DNA of 64,000 nucleotides from Acetofilamentum sp. (GCA_020721805.1 DYMB01000003.1:35921-99920), one strand, 5' to 3'; numbered from the stretch's first letter, positions 555-24,854 are shown. The notes: generated from the letters alone by a model not told the origin. Made by a program: numbers and translations.

Positions 555-823
555 GGAGAAAAAAGATTGATGATACAAAATAATCTAAAGAGTCAATCCG
601 AATTGTCTATAAAAATGAAAACAATTTTTTTTGATCATCAAAATTTTTTAAATATTAAATCCTATCAGGCAAAATTTATATTAATAAATAATAAAAATCT
701 TTATAAATATCTTACTTAATATAAGAAATCAGGAGATTTTATGAAATTAGAGGATTTAAAAAAATAAAGGAAAAAGAAACTAAAGTTAAAATTGATAAAG
801 CGAGAATAAAAACGGTTGTTTGT

Positions 824-1090
824 ATGGAGACAAATGGAATATCTTTTATTCTAAAAGATTTTTATAGTGGTTTAATTTACGATCTAAAAAAAATGAAATT
901 AAGTGATGGGATTTTTACACGATCAGGTTATAGGGAACCGCGTGATATAGATCCACTGACAGATATTTATTATATAGGGGAAAAAATGGTAACATATGGC
1001 TATTTAACCCCTCAAAAAGTTAAAAGAATAACAGCAGAAAATTTTGTTAAAGGAAAGATTGTTAAAAAGTTGCGAGTTTTTTCTATCTAA
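824..1090 (+). CDS. hypothetical small protein (88 aa), doubtful
   Basis: The composition looks protein-like. I see no convincing RBS. It sits inside an 800-bp AT-rich intergenic region. Confidence 0.2.
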   Translation: METNGISFILKDFYSGLIYDLKKMKLSDGIFTRSGYREPRDIDPLTDIYYIGEKMVTYGYLTPQKVKRITAENFVKGKIVKKLRVFSI

Positions 1091-1354
1091 TTGGTTTATG
1101 GAAAGAAAAATGTACAATGTTAATAATGTAGTTTCTATTTTAAATTGTGGATACACTTTTAAGAACAATCTGTTATTCAAGTTAAAAAAAGATAACATCA
1201 AAAATTCTTTTCTATATAGAATAGAAAAAAAGATGAAATTTCAAATTTTTGAAAATATTTCAAATAAAAAAAGCAAAAAATCAAATCCAATAAAAGGAAA
1301 AAATGTAAAACGGATCTTTAGTTATAAAAACAAAAACTAAATTATGGAGGATTT

Positions 1355-1819
1355 ATGGACAGAGAAAGTATAATGAAAAAGTATGAACCGACTCGTGAAA
1401 ATCTCCTGTATATTTTACACAAGATACAGGATTCAAAAGAGGAGAAATATCTTTCAGAGGAGGATCTGATTGCAGTTTCAAAATACCTTAATTTGAGTAG
1501 ATCAGAGGTGATGGGAGTGGCAACATTCTACACCATGTTTTCAGTGAAAAAGCGTGGTAATCACATTTTAAGAGTATGTGTTTCACCTCCCTGTCAGTTG
1601 ATGGGAAGTGATAACATTTTCAACTATCTTAAAAAGGTTCTTGGAATTAAAGATGGAAAGACAACGAGTGATAACATGTTTACACTTGAAACATCCTCAT
1701 GCCTTGGTCTATGTTCTGTTGCTCCAGCGATGATGGTTGATGATCAAATGTATGGGAATTTAACACCCGAAAAAATTGATGAAATTTTAACCAGTTACAG
1801 GGAGAAGAAAAATGACTAA
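1355..1819 (+). CDS. hydC: NuoE-like [2Fe-2S] subunit of a NAD(P)-linked [FeFe] hydrogenase (HydC)
   Basis: 154 aa with the thioredoxin-like 2Fe-2S motifs CVSPPCQLMGSD and SCLGLCSVAP. A GGAGG RBS lies upstream. It is the first gene of the hydCBA trio. Confidence 0.85.
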   Translation: MDRESIMKKYEPTRENLLYILHKIQDSKEEKYLSEEDLIAVSKYLNLSRSEVMGVATFYTMFSVKKRGNHILRVCVSPPCQLMGSDNIFNYLKKVLGIKDGKTTSDNMFTLETSSCLGLCSVAPAMMVDDQMYGNLTPEKIDEILTSYREKKND

Positions 1820-3386
1820 AATATTTAGAAGTCATATTTTTATTTCGATGGATCCCAAATCTCTTCTTGCAGAATCTACAGGGGTTTATGAGAAGTTAAA
1901 AAAAGAAATAGAAAAAAATGGTCTTGAAAATGAAATAATGGTTACAAAGACTGGAAACCTCGGTATATCAGATAAGGGAGTTGTGCTTGTAGTTTATCCC
2001 GAAGGTGTTTCTTATGTTAATGTTAAAAAAGATGATGTTGATAGGATAGTTAAAGAACATCTTATTAAAGGAAAAATATTAAAAGATCTTCTTTTTGAAG
2101 GTGAAGTGGTTAAAAAAGATGGTAGTTTGTTTGAAAGACCAAAAGAGGAAAGAATAGTTTTAAAAGGAGTGGGAGAAATAGATCCTGAAAATATCGATGA
2201 ATATATAACAATTGGTGGATTTGAAGCTTTAGAAAAATCTTTGCTTAAAATGAAGCCAGAGGATGTGATAGATCAGGTTAAAGAATCTGGACTCAGAGGA
2301 AGAGGAGGAGCTGGTTTTCCAACAGGGTTGAAATGGTCTTTTACTGCGCCATTAAAAGGAGAAAAATATATTATTTGCAATGCGGATGAGGGAGAACCGG
2401 GAACTTTTAAGGATAGATTGATAATGGAAGGTCTTCCCTTCAGATTGATTGAAGGAATGATAATAGCAGGATATGCTATAGGTGCTTCAAAAGGTTATAT
2501 ATACATTAGAGGAGAATATGCTCTTTCAATAAAAAGGATTGAAAAGGCAATAAATAAATGCAAAGAGTATAATTTCCTTGGCAAAAATATTTTAAAGTCA
2601 GATTTTTCATTCGATATTGAGGTTAAAAAGGGAGCTGGTGCATATGTTTGCGGAGAGGAAACTTCCCTGATAGAATCTATGGAAGGTAAAAGAGGCAATC
2701 CAAGAAATAAACCACCATTTCCAGGAGTTAGGGGTTTCAAAGATAAGCCATCAGTTGTTAACAATGTTGAAACTCTTACGAATGTTCCAGAAATAATCAA
2801 CAGGGGAAGCGAATGGTATAAAAAAATTGGTATCCCAAAATGTCCAGGAACAAAAATTTATACACTTATGGGAGATATTCTTTATCCCGGGCTTATAGAA
2901 GTACCAATGGGAACAACTCTCAAAGATATAATTTTCAAATTTGGTGGTGGTTTGAAAGAGGGCAAAAAATTTAAAGCTGCCTTGATAGGTGGAGCTGCAG
3001 GTGCTTTCTTATCCCAAAAACAAATTGATGTTAAGATGGATTTTGATTCTTTGGGAGAATATTCCGCTCTTCTTGGATCCGGTGCAATATTGGTTCTTTC
3101 CGAAGAAAGGAATACCTATGAAACACTCGATTCTATACTCCAATTTTTCAAACATGAGTCGTGTGGAAAATGTTCACCATGCAGAATAGGGACAAAGCAA
3201 CTTTCCATAATGTCTAAAAATATTCTAAATGGTAAAGCGACCATAAGAGATTGGGAAAAGATGAAAAATTTATCATATGTTATGAAACTCACATCTTTCT
3301 GCCCTCTTGGACAGTCACCATATATACCAATAAATAGTTTCAGCAAATATCTTGAAGATGATGTAAAAAAAATATTAAATAAATAA
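1812..3386 (+). CDS. hydB: NuoF-like FMN/NAD(P)H-binding subunit of [FeFe] hydrogenase (HydB)
   Basis: 524 aa. It has the GRGGAGFPTGLKW FMN/NADH site and the ESCGKCSPCRIG...C 4Fe-4S (N3-type) motif. Its start overlaps the end of hydC. Confidence 0.85.
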   Translation: MTKIFRSHIFISMDPKSLLAESTGVYEKLKKEIEKNGLENEIMVTKTGNLGISDKGVVLVVYPEGVSYVNVKKDDVDRIVKEHLIKGKILKDLLFEGEVVKKDGSLFERPKEERIVLKGVGEIDPENIDEYITIGGFEALEKSLLKMKPEDVIDQVKESGLRGRGGAGFPTGLKWSFTAPLKGEKYIICNADEGEPGTFKDRLIMEGLPFRLIEGMIIAGYAIGASKGYIYIRGEYALSIKRIEKAINKCKEYNFLGKNILKSDFSFDIEVKKGAGAYVCGEETSLIESMEGKRGNPRNKPPFPGVRGFKDKPSVVNNVETLTNVPEIINRGSEWYKKIGIPKCPGTKIYTLMGDILYPGLIEVPMGTTLKDIIFKFGGGLKEGKKFKAALIGGAAGAFLSQKQIDVKMDFDSLGEYSALLGSGAILVLSEERNTYETLDSILQFFKHESCGKCSPCRIGTKQLSIMSKNILNGKATIRDWEKMKNLSYVMKLTSFCPLGQSPYIPINSFSKYLEDDVKKILNK

Positions 3387-3396
3387 GGAGAGAAGA

Positions 3397-5181
3397 ATGG
3401 TTAAAGAATTAACGGTTTATATCGATGGTTTTGAAGTAAAGGTTCCAGAGGGAACCACGATACTTGATGCTGCTAAAAAGATAAATGTTGATATTCCAAC
3501 TCTCTGTTATTATAAAGACCTAACACCAACAGGAAACTGCGGTATATGTGTGGTGGAGGTGGAGAATAGCCCAACACTGAAAAGATCCTGTTGCACTCCG
3601 GTTAGTGATAAGATGAGAATCAATACAGCCACAAAACAGGTTATCGATGCAAGAAAGACTCTTCTTCAACTTATACTTTCAAACCATCCAAACGATTGCC
3701 TTGAATGTTTCAAAAATCAAAATTGTGAATTGCAATCTCTTGCAGAAAAACTTGGTGTTTATGAATTACCGTTTGAAAGGTTTGATAGGGATCTTCCACT
3801 TGATGATAAGGGAGTCATAATAAGGGATCCAAACAAATGTATACTTTGTGGAAGATGTATAGAGGTATGTCAGGAAGTACAGTCAGTTTTTGCCATAGAC
3901 TTTATAAATAGAGGATACGAAACAAAAGTGGCACCTTTTATGGATATGCCTTTATCTGAAAGTGTATGCACAAACTGCGGGCAGTGTGTTGTTGTTTGTC
4001 CGGTTGGAGCACTTTATGAAAAGTCAAATATAGATGATGTCTGGGCAGCCATAAATGATCCTAAAAAGCATGTTGTGGTTCAAGAAGCACCTGCTGTTAG
4101 AGTAGCGATAGGTGAAGAGTTTGGGTTTAAAGAGGGTGAAGTAACAGCTGGTAAAATGCATGCTGTATTGAGAAGGATGGGATTCGATAAAGTCTTTGAT
4201 ACCAACTTTACCGCCGATCTAACAATTATGGAAGAGGGAACAGAAGTTGTCCATAAAATATACGAAGCTTTTGAAACCGGTAATTTTGGAAAACATTTGC
4301 CAGTTATCACTTCCTGTTCACCTGGATGGATAAAATTTATGGAAACATTTTTTGCTGACATAAAAGAACATGTTTCATCCTCGAAATCTCCACAGCAGAT
4401 GTTCGGAGCACTTTCAAAAACATATTATGCCAAGGTTTCAAACATAGATCCAAAAAATATAGTTTCAGTTTCCATAATGCCATGTACCGCAAAAAAGTAT
4501 GAAGCTGATAGACCTGAAATGAATGCAAGTGGATATAAGGATGTTGATTATGTTCTTACAACGAGAGAGTTCGCAAAGATGATAAGACAATCGGGAATAG
4601 ACTTCAAGAATTTATCTGATGAACCCGCTGATGAGTTGATGGGATTCTATACGGGTGCCGCAACAATTTTTGGTGCCACAGGCGGAGTTATGGAAGCGGC
4701 TATAAGAACCGCTTATTTTATCCTTTCCGGTGAAGAACTGAAAGATTATGATATAAAGATAGTCAGAGGAATGGAAGGTGTAAAAGAGGGTGTTCTTGAA
4801 GTTCCAGTAAAAAAACTTGGTAAAAAGGTCCAATTGAAAGTTGCGGTTGCACATGGATTATCCAATGCAAGAAATCTTTTAACAAAGGTTGCTAAACAAC
4901 TCAAAGAAAAAGGAGAATCCGAATATCACTTCATAGAGATAATGGCATGTCCAGGCGGATGTGTTGGAGGTGGTGGACAACCGTATGCATCCGAATACGC
5001 CGCAAGGGCAAGAAGAGCAGAAGGTCTTTATAAAGAGGATAGAGAGATGTTACAGTTTAGAGCATCACACCAGAACCCAATGGTTCAAAAAGTATATAAA
5101 GATTTTCTTAAAGAACCTTATTCGGAACTTGCACATAAACTTTTACATACAAAATATGTTGATAGATCGGACCTTGTATAA
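3397..5181 (+). CDS. hydA: [FeFe] hydrogenase catalytic subunit HydA (M3 architecture)
   Basis: 594 aa. The N-terminal 2Fe-2S Cys motif is present, then NHPNDCLEC (His-ligated 4Fe-4S) and two ferredoxin motifs (CILCGRCIEVC, CTNCGQCVVVCP). H-cluster motifs MPCTAKKYE and EIMACPGGCVGGGGQP are present. The L1 motif reads TSCSPGW. Confidence 0.9.
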   Translation: MVKELTVYIDGFEVKVPEGTTILDAAKKINVDIPTLCYYKDLTPTGNCGICVVEVENSPTLKRSCCTPVSDKMRINTATKQVIDARKTLLQLILSNHPNDCLECFKNQNCELQSLAEKLGVYELPFERFDRDLPLDDKGVIIRDPNKCILCGRCIEVCQEVQSVFAIDFINRGYETKVAPFMDMPLSESVCTNCGQCVVVCPVGALYEKSNIDDVWAAINDPKKHVVVQEAPAVRVAIGEEFGFKEGEVTAGKMHAVLRRMGFDKVFDTNFTADLTIMEEGTEVVHKIYEAFETGNFGKHLPVITSCSPGWIKFMETFFADIKEHVSSSKSPQQMFGALSKTYYAKVSNIDPKNIVSVSIMPCTAKKYEADRPEMNASGYKDVDYVLTTREFAKMIRQSGIDFKNLSDEPADELMGFYTGAATIFGATGGVMEAAIRTAYFILSGEELKDYDIKIVRGMEGVKEGVLEVPVKKLGKKVQLKVAVAHGLSNARNLLTKVAKQLKEKGESEYHFIEIMACPGGCVGGGGQPYASEYAARARRAEGLYKEDREMLQFRASHQNPMVQKVYKDFLKEPYSELAHKLLHTKYVDRSDLV

Positions 5182-5200
5182 ATTTGAAAATTTCCTAAAT

Positions 5201-5230
5201 AAAAAAGGGGGTTTTAAAACCCCTTTTTTA
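5201..5230. terminator. bidirectional rho-independent terminator between convergent hydA and yjbQ-family gene
   Basis: The sequence is AAAAAAGGGGG-ttttaaaa-CCCCTTTTTTT, a perfect palindrome with a GC stem flanked by an A-run and a T-run. Confidence 0.75.
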
Positions 5231-5235
5231 TTAAA

Positions 5236-21032: not shown

Positions 21033-21845
21033 TTGAAAAAGATAACAAAGAGTATCGTTGATCCCATCTGTCAACTTTATCAGGATATAAATATAAACCC
21101 ATCAAGATTTGTTTTAAAAAGGATGTTAAAAGAAAAACCACTGAACGAAACACAAAAATTGTTTATGGATAGTTTTAAAGAGAATATAAAATTATCAAAA
21201 AAGAATAAAACTCCCTTATGTCAGGATACAGGCCATATAACTGTTTTTATTGAAACCCCACAAAAATTTTCTCTCGATTTTAATTTAGAGGAAGAGTTAA
21301 ACAAAAGGATAAATGAGAAGACTGAAGATTTTGGTTTCAGATACTCTATCGTGGATTGGAAAGGAAGATATAACAATAATGTATCGGTTTATATTTTTCA
21401 AAGTAAAAGAAAAAATTTAAAAATTGTAGTTATGGCAAAAGGTGGAGGTAGTGAAAACCTTACCAGAATGTTCACTCTCAATCCCTCTTTATCTTTAGAT
21501 GAAATATCAGAAAATGTATTTAAAAGTGTCTTAGAGGCAAAAGATAGAGGTTGTCCCCCATACATACTTGGAGTTGGAATAGGCAAAAGTGCTCTGGATT
21601 CAACCTTTCTTTCCAAGAAAGCCTTGACCGGTAAATTTTCATATAACAGAAAACTTGTGGAAAAAAGGATAAGGGATTTGGTTTTGAAAAAAACTAAAAA
21701 TATTAAAATAGGTTATTTAGGTTTAAATTTTGGAGAGACCGTTTTGGATTGCAGGGTGATAGTTGAAGAAAGACACATAGCAACACTTCCATTAACGGTT
21801 TCATTCAATTGTTATCAAGAGAGAGTCGGGGTTTTATATTTATGA
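21033..21845 (+). CDS. class I (Fe-S) fumarate hydratase, alpha subunit / N-terminal domain (TTG start)
   Basis: 270 aa with the PLCQDTGH motif characteristic of class I fumarase/tartrate dehydratase alpha chains. Confidence 0.75.
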   Translation: MKKITKSIVDPICQLYQDININPSRFVLKRMLKEKPLNETQKLFMDSFKENIKLSKKNKTPLCQDTGHITVFIETPQKFSLDFNLEEELNKRINEKTEDFGFRYSIVDWKGRYNNNVSVYIFQSKRKNLKIVVMAKGGGSENLTRMFTLNPSLSLDEISENVFKSVLEAKDRGCPPYILGVGIGKSALDSTFLSKKALTGKFSYNRKLVEKRIRDLVLKKTKNIKIGYLGLNFGETVLDCRVIVEERHIATLPLTVSFNCYQERVGVLYL

Positions 21846-22372
21846 AATCTATAAATACTTTTGAATTGGATAAGATAAAAAAATTGAAAGTCGGAGAGAC
21901 GGTTCTTCTTTCAGGTGAAATTTTTTTGGCAAGGGATAGGGTTTTAAAAAAAATGGAAGATGAAAATATTTTTCCTAAATTTTTAAAGGATAAGATAATA
22001 TACCATTCAGGACCAACCCAAAAAAATATTTATGGTTTTTTTTCTGCTGGTCCTACAACCTCAAAAAGGATGGATAAATTTTTAAAATTTCTCTTTGAAA
22101 ATCAGATTCTTGGAACCATAGGGAAAGGAGAAAGGGATATTGATATCCATAAAGCATATGGTAAAATCTATTTTTTAGCATTTGGAGGGCTTGGTAGTCT
22201 ATATGGTAGCAGGATAAAATCTTTAGAGCCTGTTCTTTTTAAAAGTTTCAAGAGTGAAGCAATGTTTAAAGCACAGATTGAGGATTTTCCTCTTATAGTT
22301 GCCATAGATGTTTACAAAAAAAGAATTCAAAAAGGGGAGAAAAATGTCAATTATAGAATTGATGTCAGGTAA
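21842..22372 (+). CDS. class I fumarate hydratase, beta subunit / C-terminal domain
   Basis: About 176 aa. ATGA overlap with the alpha gene. The swivelling beta-domain pattern is present (GEIFLARDRVLKK...IYHSGP...GKGERD). Confidence 0.7.
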   Translation: MKSINTFELDKIKKLKVGETVLLSGEIFLARDRVLKKMEDENIFPKFLKDKIIYHSGPTQKNIYGFFSAGPTTSKRMDKFLKFLFENQILGTIGKGERDIDIHKAYGKIYFLAFGGLGSLYGSRIKSLEPVLFKSFKSEAMFKAQIEDFPLIVAIDVYKKRIQKGEKNVNYRIDVR

Positions 22373-23483
22373 CGATGCGGTTGTTAAAGCCGCTATAATA
22401 GCAGGATGCAGATTCTATGCGGGATATCCCATTACCCCATCATCTGAAATAGCAGAGGGTATGGCAAAAGAGTTACCAAAAGTGGGTGGTAAGTTTATAC
22501 AGATGGAGGATGAAATAGGAGGAATTGGTGCCGCCATAGGAGCATCTTTAACTGGTGTAAAATCTATGACAGCGACAAGTGGACCCGGATTTTCTTTAAA
22601 GCAGGAACATATAGGATTCGCAATAATGGGAGAAATACCTATTGTTATCGTTAACGCTATGAGAGGTGGACCATCCACTGGAATGCCAACCTATCCATCA
22701 CAGGGGGATGTTATGCAGGCAAGATGGGGAACCCATGGTGATCATCAAATTATCGCTTTTGTTCCCTCTTCGGTACAGGAAACTTTTGAATTTACCATAA
22801 AAGCGTTTAACTACTCTGAAATGTATAGAACACCAGTTATACTTCTTACTGATGAGATAATCGCTCATATGAGAGAAAAAGTTGTAATAAACGAGGTTGA
22901 AAAATATAAGATTATAGATAGGATGAAACCTTCCGAGAAACCTGAAGGGTATAAACCTTTCGATACCAAGCATGGACTCGTCCCGCCACTTGCACCATAT
23001 GGTGAGGGCTACAGATTTCATATAACCGGTCTTACCCATGATCAAACAGGTTTTCCAACGACCAATCATGAAATAGTTCAAAAATTACAACAGAGGCTGC
23101 AAGACAAGATTTTAAAGAATTTCAAAAATTTTGAATTTTATGAGGAAAGAATGGTTGAAGATGCAGATATAATAGTTGTAGCTTATGGTTCTGTTGCAAG
23201 AAGTGCGATGAGGGCTATAAAGGATGCAAGAAAGGATAATATAAAGGTTGGACTTTTCAGACCAATAACCTTGTGGCCCTTCAACTATAAAAGGATAAAA
23301 GAACTTTCAAAAAAAAGTAAGAATTTCCTTGCTGTTGAGATGAATATGGGACAAATCGTTGGTGAAGTTGAAAGAGCAGTAAAAGGGGTGAAAACAAAAG
23401 TTGAATTTCTTGGAAAAGCCAACGGTGAATTGATATCCCCAACAGAGATATTTTCTAAAATTCGGGAGGTAATGAATGTATAA
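22343..23483 (+). CDS. korA: 2-oxoacid (2-oxoglutarate/pyruvate):ferredoxin oxidoreductase alpha subunit
   Basis: About 380 aa with the typical KorA/PorA N-terminus MSIIELMSGNDAVVKAAIIAGCRFYAGYPITPSSEI. RBS GGGGAG. Confidence 0.85.
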
Positions 23484-24303
23484 CGAAAATATATTCAATT
23501 ATTTAAGAACCGAAAAACTTCCACATATATGGTGTCCAGGTTGTGCACACGGAATAATAGTTGGTTCAATGCTCAGGTCGATAGAGAAGTTAAAATTGGA
23601 TAAAAATAAAATAGCTGTTCTTTCTGGAATAGGTTGTTCTGGTAGAACACCGGGTTATCTTGATATGAATACATTACACACAACACATGGTAGATCACTT
23701 ACCTTTGCAACCGGTATAAAGATGGCGAAACCGGAACTCGTTGTGATAGATGTTATGGGAGATGGTGATGCCGTGGCGATCGGGGGCAACCATTTCATAC
23801 ATGCATGTAGAAGAAATATAGATATAACAGCTATTATTTTTAACAACAATATTTATGGGATGACTGGTGGTCAATACTCTCCAACAACTCCACAGAATTA
23901 TTTTGCTTCAACCTCGCCATATGGAAATATGGAACCATCCTTTGATATAGTAAAATTAGCCATAGGGGCTGGCGCAAGTTTTGTAGCAAGGGCGGATGCT
24001 TTTCATATAGCACTTCTTGATAATGTTATAGAAAAAGCTATATCCCATAAGGGCTTTTCAGTCGTTGAGGTTATGGGAACATGCCCAACACAGTTTGGAA
24101 GAAGAAATAAAATGAAAGAGCCATATCAGATGCTTGATTTTGTTGCGGAAAGGGCTGTTTCTATAAAAAAATGGGAAGAGATGAGCGAAGAGGAGAGAAA
24201 TGGAAAATTTCCAATAGGGATATTTTTAAATGAAAATAGAGAAGAATATGTCGAATCTTATGAAAAAAATGTTATTCTTAAAGCAAAAAGGAGCAATGTA
24301 TGA
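23476..24303 (+). CDS. korB: 2-oxoacid:ferredoxin oxidoreductase beta subunit (TPP-binding)
   Basis: 275 aa. It has CPGCAHG and the TPP motif GDGDAVAIGGNHFIHA...NNNIYGMTGGQ. Confidence 0.9.
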   Translation: MYNENIFNYLRTEKLPHIWCPGCAHGIIVGSMLRSIEKLKLDKNKIAVLSGIGCSGRTPGYLDMNTLHTTHGRSLTFATGIKMAKPELVVIDVMGDGDAVAIGGNHFIHACRRNIDITAIIFNNNIYGMTGGQYSPTTPQNYFASTSPYGNMEPSFDIVKLAIGAGASFVARADAFHIALLDNVIEKAISHKGFSVVEVMGTCPTQFGRRNKMKEPYQMLDFVAERAVSIKKWEEMSEEERNGKFPIGIFLNENREEYVESYEKNVILKAKRSNV

Positions 24304-24854
24304 GGAGAGCGGAAATAAGATTGGCGGGTAGTGGAGGGCAGGGAATAATTCTTGCTGCAAAGGTTATAGCGGAAGCGGCAGGAATTTTTTCTAACTATAA
24401 TGTTCTTCAATCACAGATATATGGTGCGGCTGCAAGAGGAGAGCTTTCAAAAGCCGATGTTATAATTGATGAAGGTGACATCTATACACTTGAAATATCT
24501 GCTGCAGACATACTCCTCTCTCTTTCACAGGAGGCATACGATAAATATTCAAAAGAGTTGAAAGAGGATGGAAAGATGATCATAGACAGTTTCTATGTGA
24601 AAAATTATGATCAACTGGATAAAAGAATTTATCCTTTCCCAATATCTGAACTTTCAAAACAACTCGCAAACTCTGAACTCTTTTCAAATATGATCTCCGT
24701 TGGAATAATTACGCAGATGACTAAATATTTTTCAGAGGAGAGTATTTTAAAATCGGTTGAAAAGAATGTCCCCAAAAATTTTGTGGAGATGAACATAAAA
24801 GCTGTTAAAATTGGTTTTGAAAAAGTAGCTGAAAAGTATCCAAACATATGTTGA
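24300..24854 (+). CDS. korG: 2-oxoacid:ferredoxin oxidoreductase gamma subunit
   Basis: 184 aa with the gamma-subunit signature RLAGSGGQGIILAAKVIAEAA. Confidence 0.85.
   Translation: MRRAEIRLAGSGGQGIILAAKVIAEAAGIFSNYNVLQSQIYGAAARGELSKADVIIDEGDIYTLEISAADILLSLSQEAYDKYSKELKEDGKMIIDSFYVKNYDQLDKRIYPFPISELSKQLANSELFSNMISVGIITQMTKYFSEESILKSVEKNVPKNFVEMNIKAVKIGFEKVAEKYPNIC

Follow-up and report, generated by a model that had tools for sequence, protein, structure and literature searches.

The window, that is, the whole stretch of 64,000 nucleotides that was analysed (Acetofilamentum sp., GCA_020721805.1, DYMB01000003.1:35921-99920), contains a hydC-hydB-hydA gene set whose last gene codes for the catalytic subunit of an M3-type [FeFe]-hydrogenase. 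The features listed below are given in coordinates counted from the first nucleotide of the window, with the evidence used for each in brackets.

741..1090, + strand: decayed hydD-like gene (tblastn and blastn against hydD of the related locus L001, 46% over 113 aa; three-frame translation)
1355..1819, + strand: hydC, NuoE-like thioredoxin-like [2Fe-2S] subunit, 154 aa (PF01257; C75, C80, C116, C120)
1812..3386, + strand: hydB, NuoF-like flavoprotein with FMN/NADH site, 524 aa (PF01512, PF10589)
3397..5181, + strand: hydA, M3-type [FeFe]-hydrogenase catalytic subunit, 594 aa (Pfam, NCBIfam, PDB match, AlphaFold)
4309..4329, + strand: L1 (P1) H-cluster motif TSCSPGW, aa 305-311 (sequence; alignment to CpI and A. 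woodii)
4315-4317, codon TGT: C307, the proton-relay cysteine
4318-4320, codon TCA: S308, at the [4Fe-4S]H ligand position
4477..4503, + strand: L2 motif MPCTAKKYE, aa 361-369 (C363 is a cubane ligand, CpI C355)
4936..4983, + strand: L3 motif EIMACPGGCVGGGGQP, aa 514-529

The genes hydC and hydB are co-oriented with hydA and overlap or abut, which is the gene neighbourhood of a HydABC-type enzyme. A promoter and terminator scan gave counts that did not exceed those of shuffled controls, and searches of the window for tRNAs and Rfam families returned no matches.

Serine at a cubane-ligand position of HydA

Positions 4309-4329 (+) read ACT TCC TGT TCA CCT GGA TGG and encode T305-S306-C307-S308-P309-G310-W311 of HydA. 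The L1 motif is thus TSCSPGW with TGT TCA at its centre, as a preliminary description made from this DNA had stated, and that description was also right that a return from serine to cysteine takes two base changes (TCA to TGT or TGC, two substitutions). In a phmmer alignment of HydA with CpI, which is gap-free from L1 onward, C307 falls on CpI C299 and S308 on CpI C300; in the corresponding alignment with A. woodii HydA1 the pair falls on C300/S301, and the replaced position is that of C170 in CrHydA1 (precursor numbering). The exchanged residue is therefore the second cysteine of the motif, the [4Fe-4S]H ligand, and the proton-relay cysteine is kept, both as first proposed. The spacing of the ligands agrees with CpI (55 residues between S308 and C363, as between CpI 300 and 355; 4 between C518 and C522, as between CpI 499 and 503). 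The preliminary description had held that its reading would fall if a cysteine from elsewhere in the protein were placed at the ligand position. Our search for a compensating cysteine across the H-domain of HydA found none beyond 307, 363, 518 and 522, and since the domain has these four cysteines only and the alignment is ungapped, no cysteine from elsewhere can occupy the ligand position of S308. The observation of a serine at a cluster-ligand position in HydA is confirmed.

L2 and L3 had been described as intact, and both are present: MPCTAKKYE (aa 361-369) follows the pattern MPCxxKxxE, with M361 and K366 corresponding to CpI M353 and K358 and with C363, K366 and E369 invariant in alignment A1, and the L3 pattern ExMxCxxGCxxG is matched by EIMACPGGCVGG, in which C518 is a cubane ligand (CpI C499) and C522 the bridging cysteine to the di-iron site (CpI C503). 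The proton pathway, for which we took CpI C299, E279, E282, S319 and R286 as reference residues, is kept in the alignment as C307, E280, E283 and S327, with K287 for CpI R286. The full set of accessory-cluster ligands is also present, comprising an N-terminal [2Fe-2S] site (C37, C48, C51, C65/66), a His-ligated [4Fe-4S] site (H97, C101, C104, C110) and two ferredoxin-type [4Fe-4S] sites (C148-158 and C191-201).

The architecture of HydA is the M3 type of CpI, with a small-subunit-like tail on the H-domain (Pfam: PF02906, Fe_hyd_lg_C, 6.3e-93; PF02256, Fe_hyd_SSU, 1.7e-22). The protein passes the group A model TIGR02512 (507.7 bits, cutoff 405.95) and the NCBIfam model NF040763, 'NADH-dependent [FeFe] hydrogenase, group A6' (839 bits, cutoff 765), the latter over model positions 2-571 of 571, and its closest database protein, at 92% identity, bears this same name and belongs to a MAG of candidate division WOR-3. 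The best PDB match is 7q4v_A, the HydA1 of A. woodii (E 1.9e-188), and the AlphaFold model (mean pLDDT 93.8, pTM 0.92) superposes on 8a6t_A (T. kivui) and 7q4w_A (A. woodii) with TM of 0.91-0.92 and on CpI with 0.89. HydA lacks the ligand cysteine of the textbook TSCCPxW motif (CpI C300), having Ser308 there; since this L1 cysteine is not universal among [FeFe]-hydrogenases, Ser308 does not bar the protein from group A. Compared with its two closest relatives, L001 and L002 (~83% nucleotide identity), hydA has a dN/dS of 0.04 and is under strong purifying selection. We also considered hydA as a pseudogene and rejected this, the ORF being intact and full length relative to the family model.

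HydB, HydC and the history of the locus

The HydB of the window carries a single [4Fe-4S] site (C451, C454, C457, C497) and no cysteine at all in its N-terminal thioredoxin-like domain (aa 1-188). It stops at the residue aligned to position 524 of the 599 of A. woodii HydB and contains no CxxCxxCxxxC motif; it thus has neither the C-terminal 2x[4Fe-4S] domain nor the N-terminal [2Fe-2S] of bifurcating-type HydB proteins. Its signatures are PGTFKDR, GAGAYVCGEET and GGAAG, where the four reference chains 7q4v_B, 7p5h_B, 9n5u_B and 7t2r_B (A. woodii, T. maritima, P. furiosus NfnB and the HydB of 7T2R) have PGAFM(D/N)R, GAGAFVCGEET and GGPSG. Losey et al. 2020 (PMC7311640) associate bifurcating HydB with Ala/Glu232 and Met234, a Phe near the FMN and GGPSG, and non-bifurcating HydB with Thr/Ser232, Lys/Ser/Ala234, a Tyr near the FMN and no GGPSG. 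Positions 232/234 and 427-431 of these criteria fit 7p5h_B, numbered as in T. maritima. The 'position 367' given for the Phe/Tyr does not fit (by PDB numbering the Phe of 7p5h_B is F312), and this residue was located from its description. Under this scheme, whose criteria were derived from few characterised enzymes, the HydB of the window has the non-bifurcating residues (T and K at T. maritima 232/234, Tyr, GGAAG) and not the bifurcating ones.

Given that HydB is without the extra Fe-S domains and shows the non-bifurcating signatures, we lean towards a complex that would be non-bifurcating and work with NADH alone, without ferredoxin. In such a complex electrons would pass from NADH to the FMN and [4Fe-4S] of HydB, then through the four accessory clusters of HydA to the H-cluster, with the [2Fe-2S] of HydC lying alongside HydB in the path. 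Across the 80 loci described below, HydA proteins with TSCSPGW are paired with either class of HydB, so the serine ligand is not tied to bifurcation.

The surroundings of the genes differ between the window and its relatives. In L001 and L002, and also in L004 and L006, the genes run PHP - hydC2 - HATPase - hydD - hydB2 - hydC - hydB - hydA, where hydB2 has bifurcating-type signatures and hydB is NADH-type. When the DNA of the window was aligned with L001, two segments of the latter were absent from the window: one, L001 912-1933, holds hydC2 and HATPase, and the other, L001 2294-3926, holds hydB2. The gene hydD, which in the relatives codes for a small thioredoxin-like [2Fe-2S] protein, has decayed in the window through a frameshift after about codon 8, with loss of its Cys ligands; the residual ORF (824..1090, 88 aa) contains no cysteine and gave no Pfam match. 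From these alignments, the lineage of the window appears to have pruned the locus to its NADH-type module.

Occurrence of serine at the ligand position

Of the 120 database homologues nearest to HydA (58-92% identity), 118 have the motif TSCSPGW. We also scanned genomes, one per species, and obtained 80 loci spread over more than 10 phyla (WOR-3, Hydrothermota, Syntrophorhabdaceae, Spirochaetes, Cloacimonadota, Delongbacteria, Caldisericota, Bacillota, Bacteroidota, Armatimonadota, Synergistaceae and others); every HydA in them, paralogues included, has TSCSPGW save one with SSCSPGW. With the window added, the ligand position is serine in all motif copies (103/103), encoded by AGC in 46, AGT in 16, TCA in 14, TCT in 13, TCG in 12 and TCC in 2. 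Serine codons of the AGY and TCY types are each one step from the TGY of cysteine, and the use of both codon families indicates that what is kept is the amino acid itself. The closest relatives, L001 and L002, have TGT TCA at the motif, as does the window.

For a wider census we took the 150 nearest representatives of clusters at 50% identity, a sample biased towards the neighbourhood of the query HydA, and found C-S in 23 of about 126 recognisable L1 motifs (~18%) and C-C in about 100. In a neighbour-joining tree of 117 H-domains, which is comb-like and poorly resolved, C-S and C-C sequences interleave, with 14 Fitch changes for 22 C-S tips, and one TSCCPGW sequence (P0038) sits within the C-S clade of the window. 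Because of the poor resolution we restrict the claim to the Cys/Ser state at the ligand position having changed more than once. A search for a compensating second-sphere residue (Fisher test, C-S versus C-C sequences) found no position near perfect association; the enrichments in C-S sequences beside the ligand loops (CpI F296 to I, G302, V304 to I and V496 to I) are moderate and confounded by phylogeny, including the Gly at the CpI G302 position (91% of C-S versus 40% of C-C sequences).

The published record agrees with these counts. Kertess et al. 2017 (PMC5855289), citing Winkler, Esselborn and Happe 2013, put the share of analysed sequences with serine here at about 20%. Di Rienzi et al. 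(eLife 2013) report TSCSPGW from metagenomic data, in confurcating hydrogenases of Melainabacteria (PMC3787301), and this was the sole relevant match of a full-text literature search for the motif; 'Fantastic [FeFe]-hydrogenases' (PMC8924675) has nothing on it. At the structural level, Katsyv et al. [quoted passage not shown] They see no evident change in the FTIR signature, and present both of the complexes that they studied as active, bidirectional hydrogenases. Given the published sequence surveys and the structure and FTIR data from A. woodii, the serine variant is not new: serine at the cubane-ligand position is already documented in sequences, in a structure and by spectroscopy. The preliminary description had called the motif atypical, a view that does not survive its presence in 118/120 homologues, at the 80 loci and in some 18-20% of [FeFe]-hydrogenase sequences; judged from these homologues, TSCSPGW is the standard L1 loop in the clade of 'group A6'-type HydA.

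Cubane ligation and comparison with known hydrogenases

With the motif, its alignment and conservation, the family membership, the operon context and the purifying selection on hydA observed directly, we consider it very likely that HydA is the active group A6-type subunit of an NADH-linked hydC-hydB-hydA hydrogenase in which TSCSPGW is the norm and the cubane is held by three cysteines and Ser308. The cubane of the H-cluster would be ligated by C363, C518 and the bridging C522 together with the side-chain oxygen of Ser308, and Cys307 would keep its usual role as the final proton-relay residue beside the di-iron site; the enzyme would be normal and active, both producing and oxidising H2. We infer the ligation by Ser308 and the activity from the A. 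woodii homologue (cryo-EM model, 49% identity). A Ser-ligated cluster was among the options raised in the preliminary description, and it now gains the report of the A. woodii authors on Ser301 within an identical motif (PMC10021017); for the HydA of the window the ligation itself stays an analogy with that protein. A scan of ORFs in the 64-kb window for the maturase genes hydE, hydF and hydG found none, a result that is uninformative at that window size.

Tolerance of serine depends on context. Kertess et al. (Chem Sci 2017) number the expressed CrHydA1, with C115 next to C114 and the ligands at 115/170/362/366 (PMC5855289); in their engineered C115S variant (C170S in the precursor) the cubane is hardly bound and maturation fails (PMC5855289). 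Since natural enzymes with TSCSP are stable and active, the natural scaffold evidently accommodates the serine that costs the algal enzyme its cubane.

Engineered algal variants also bear on the alternative that fares best, namely that Ser308 is no true ligand and merely hydrogen-bonds to a cubane held by three cysteines, with water/hydroxide or Cys307 as the fourth ligand. In its favour, the authors of the CrHydA1 work suggest that in C115A the neighbouring Cys114 may stand in as ligand, and C115S binds its cluster poorly (PMC5855289); moreover, the statement on the serine ligand in A. woodii comes from a cryo-EM map, where O and OH2 ligation are hard to distinguish. However, the authors of that structure modelled and described Ser301 as a ligand and recorded a normal FTIR signature (PMC10021017), and a shift of Cys307 onto the cubane would cost the proton relay, yet A. 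woodii HydABC is highly active (PMC10021017). In addition, about 100 independent sequences keep serine, and not Ala, Gly or Thr, through both codon families, which points to the hydroxyl having a role of its own. We regard the three-cysteine cubane as improbable.

Less probable still is that HydA is a sensory or non-catalytic paralogue of the HydS kind in which the exchange of Cys for Ser marks lost or altered catalysis, as the preliminary description had suggested from the departure of L1 from the textbook motif, the sole point in its support. Against it, Pfam detected no PAS or other signalling domain in HydA, the protein still has its proton-relay Cys and E/S/E/K pathway, it passes the catalytic model for group A6 and not the other models, hydA lies directly downstream of the genes for NuoE- and NuoF-like subunits, the solved A. 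woodii enzyme with the identical motif is catalytically active (PMC10021017), and hydA has a dN/dS of 0.04. The missing PAS domain, the intact proton path, the A6 model, the hydC-hydB-hydA operon and the dN/dS together leave the sensory reading unsupported. A sequencing or assembly error at codon 308, or a recent inactivating mutation there, has nothing to recommend it but the departure from consensus and can practically be dismissed, as serine recurs in 118/120 homologues and in 103/103 motif copies from independent assemblies, which makes neither error nor chance a sufficient account, L001 and L002 also have TGT TCA, and hydA is an unbroken ORF that spans the family model (2-571 of 571).

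Returning to HydA as an active group A6-type subunit with Ser308 as a ligand, an extension of this reading would make the serine an adaptive tuning, for example of the [4Fe-4S]H potential to suit NuoEF-type modules, toggling repeatedly with Cys over evolutionary time, and would join to it the pruning, to an NADH-only module, of a hydrogenase that formerly had two flavoprotein modules of different kinds, one bifurcating-type and one NADH-type, as L001 and L002 do. We hold this fuller account to be unlikely; if true, serine would be more than a neutral alternative to cysteine.

The finding is therefore real but ordinary, since a large clade of NADH-linked hydrogenases has serine here as its regular, conserved residue; the active enzyme of solved structure from A. 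woodii is one of them. For annotation, TSCSPGW is no sign of a defective or sensory hydrogenase, as it is the norm in group A6-type enzymes. That natural scaffolds tolerate a serine ligand that destroys cluster binding once engineered into algal HydA1 raises a question of serine tolerance that is general and not specific to the window.

Sensory group C [FeFe]-hydrogenases (HydS) have a C-terminal PAS/signalling domain and a disrupted proton pathway. Taken by this description, the HydS type shares with the HydA of the window the homology of the H-domain only, whereas the latter has no PAS domain, keeps the relay cysteine and belongs to a catalytic operon. The engineered CrHydA1 C115S carries the equal Cys-to-Ser exchange at the equal ligand position and, unlike natural TSCSP enzymes, almost loses its cubane. 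T. kivui HydA1 (8A6T) and C. pasteurianum CpI share with HydA the fold (TM 0.89-0.91), the cluster complement, L2, L3 and the proton pathway, but have the canonical TSCCP(S/G)W and an all-Cys cubane where HydA has Ser.

On the side of HydB, the published non-bifurcating pattern of S. wolfei Hyd1ABC and S. aciditrophicus HydAB (PMC7311640) is matched by that of the window, and the three-gene C-B-A layout of S. wolfei Hyd1ABC resembles the window's, a likeness taken from the description in PMC7311640. These non-bifurcating enzymes of Syntrophomonas and Syntrophus belong to a different phylum from the window (WOR-3). The HydABC(D) complex of A. woodii (7Q4V/7Q4W/8A5E) also has NuoE-like and NuoF-like partners, as in the window, and is a proven bifurcating HydABC, whereas the complex of the window is probably not bifurcating to judge from its genes; in A. 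woodii, HydB contains a [2Fe-2S] at its N-terminus and a 2x[4Fe-4S] domain at its C-terminus and shows the signatures PGAFMDR, GAGAF and GGPSG, and none of these features occurs in the HydB of the window. The HydA1 of A. woodii, in contrast, has the M3 architecture of the window's HydA, with 49% overall identity and a TM of 0.92, and the stretch ITSCSPGWIKF is identical in the two proteins.

Codons and surroundings of the ligand-position serine

Across the window (4318-4320) and the 80 homologous genome loci (L001-L080), the serine at the H-cluster cubane-ligand position of HydA is encoded by both serine codon families, AGY 62 times and TCN 41 times. The cysteine codons TGY lie one step away from either family. 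This usage fits repeated toggling between cysteine and serine with cysteine as the bridge. Residues flanking the cubane ligands, at HydA positions 304, 310, 312 and 515 (CpI 296, 302, 304 and 496), showed a moderate, phylogeny-confounded enrichment in enzymes with serine at the ligand position (C-S) relative to those with cysteine (C-C). The residues enriched in C-S enzymes are Ile in place of Phe296, Gly302, Ile304 and Ile496 (CpI numbering), and may represent a packing accommodation for the serine, a reading subject to the same confounding by phylogeny.

Outside the window, the library of nearest 50%-identity cluster representatives contains a predicted protein of 4122 amino acids (P0121) with seven HydA H-domains in tandem at a period of 444 amino acids, in which the L1 motif reads TSCCASW or TSCCAGW, with Ala in place of Pro. 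P0121 may represent a polyprotein, or it may have arisen through misassembly.

HydB N-terminal domain and signature numbering

The HydB encoded in the window (1812-3386) keeps its thioredoxin-like N-terminal domain (amino acids 1-100), which contains zero cysteines, so that the [2Fe-2S] site of the domain has been lost. A Cys-less N-terminal domain is common to all HydB proteins of the NADH-type (Y/TK) class from the WOR-3 and Hydrothermota loci. Regarding the signature positions, the diagnostic Phe/Tyr was placed at "position 367" by Losey et al. (PMC7311640), whereas the diagnostic Phe of GAGAFVCGEET is F312 in T. maritima HydB (7p5h_B); positions 232/234 and 427-431 of the same study (PMC7311640) agree with the 7p5h_B numbering.

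Gene content around hydA

Compared with its two closest WOR-3 relatives (L001 and L002), the window is missing three genes at 555-1354 that are present in L001 at 912-3926, namely hydC2, a gene for a HATPase_c protein and a hydB2 of the bifurcating type. In this respect the hyd locus of the window looks like the product of lineage-specific pruning. Downstream, the relatives carry ~3.1 kb that separates hydA from a convergently oriented UPF0047 gene (L001 7790-10889), comprising a CstA-like transporter and an oxaloacetate decarboxylase beta subunit, and this stretch is also missing in the window (5186-5233). Two features were retrieved in the window:

~741-1090 (ORF 824..1090), small gene, frameshifted and Cys-less hydD remnant, the sole retained part of the missing upstream stretch
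22308-23483 (with neighbours ~21033-24854), 2-oxoacid:ferredoxin oxidoreductase alpha subunit (POR_N, PFOR_II), 17 kb downstream of hydA

The organism encodes this alpha subunit and therefore makes reduced ferredoxin, yet the HydB of its hydrogenase is without ferredoxin-type domains. The other ORFs scanned encode ordinary housekeeping functions (IleRS, UPRTase, Mfd, SurA-like proteins, LptD-like, and M16, C25 and M48 peptidases), and scans of the window (1-64000) yielded neither tRNA genes nor Rfam families at the gathering threshold.

HydB modules in related loci

Within the 6 kb upstream of hydA, four loci (L001, L002, L004 and L006) carry two differing NuoE/NuoF modules in tandem before a single TSCSPGW hydA. 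The HydB of the first module has bifurcating-type signatures (F, AM, GGPSG), ~540 amino acids and no C-terminal Fer4, and that of the second module has NADH-type signatures (Y, TK, GGAAG). In the Syntrophorhabdaceae-type loci (L005, L008, L010, L012, L014-L020, L024-L028 and L043), two TSCSPGW hydA paralogues flank one HydB of ~1020 amino acids with bifurcating-type signatures, whose ~600 residues beyond the FMN domain constitute a fused module.
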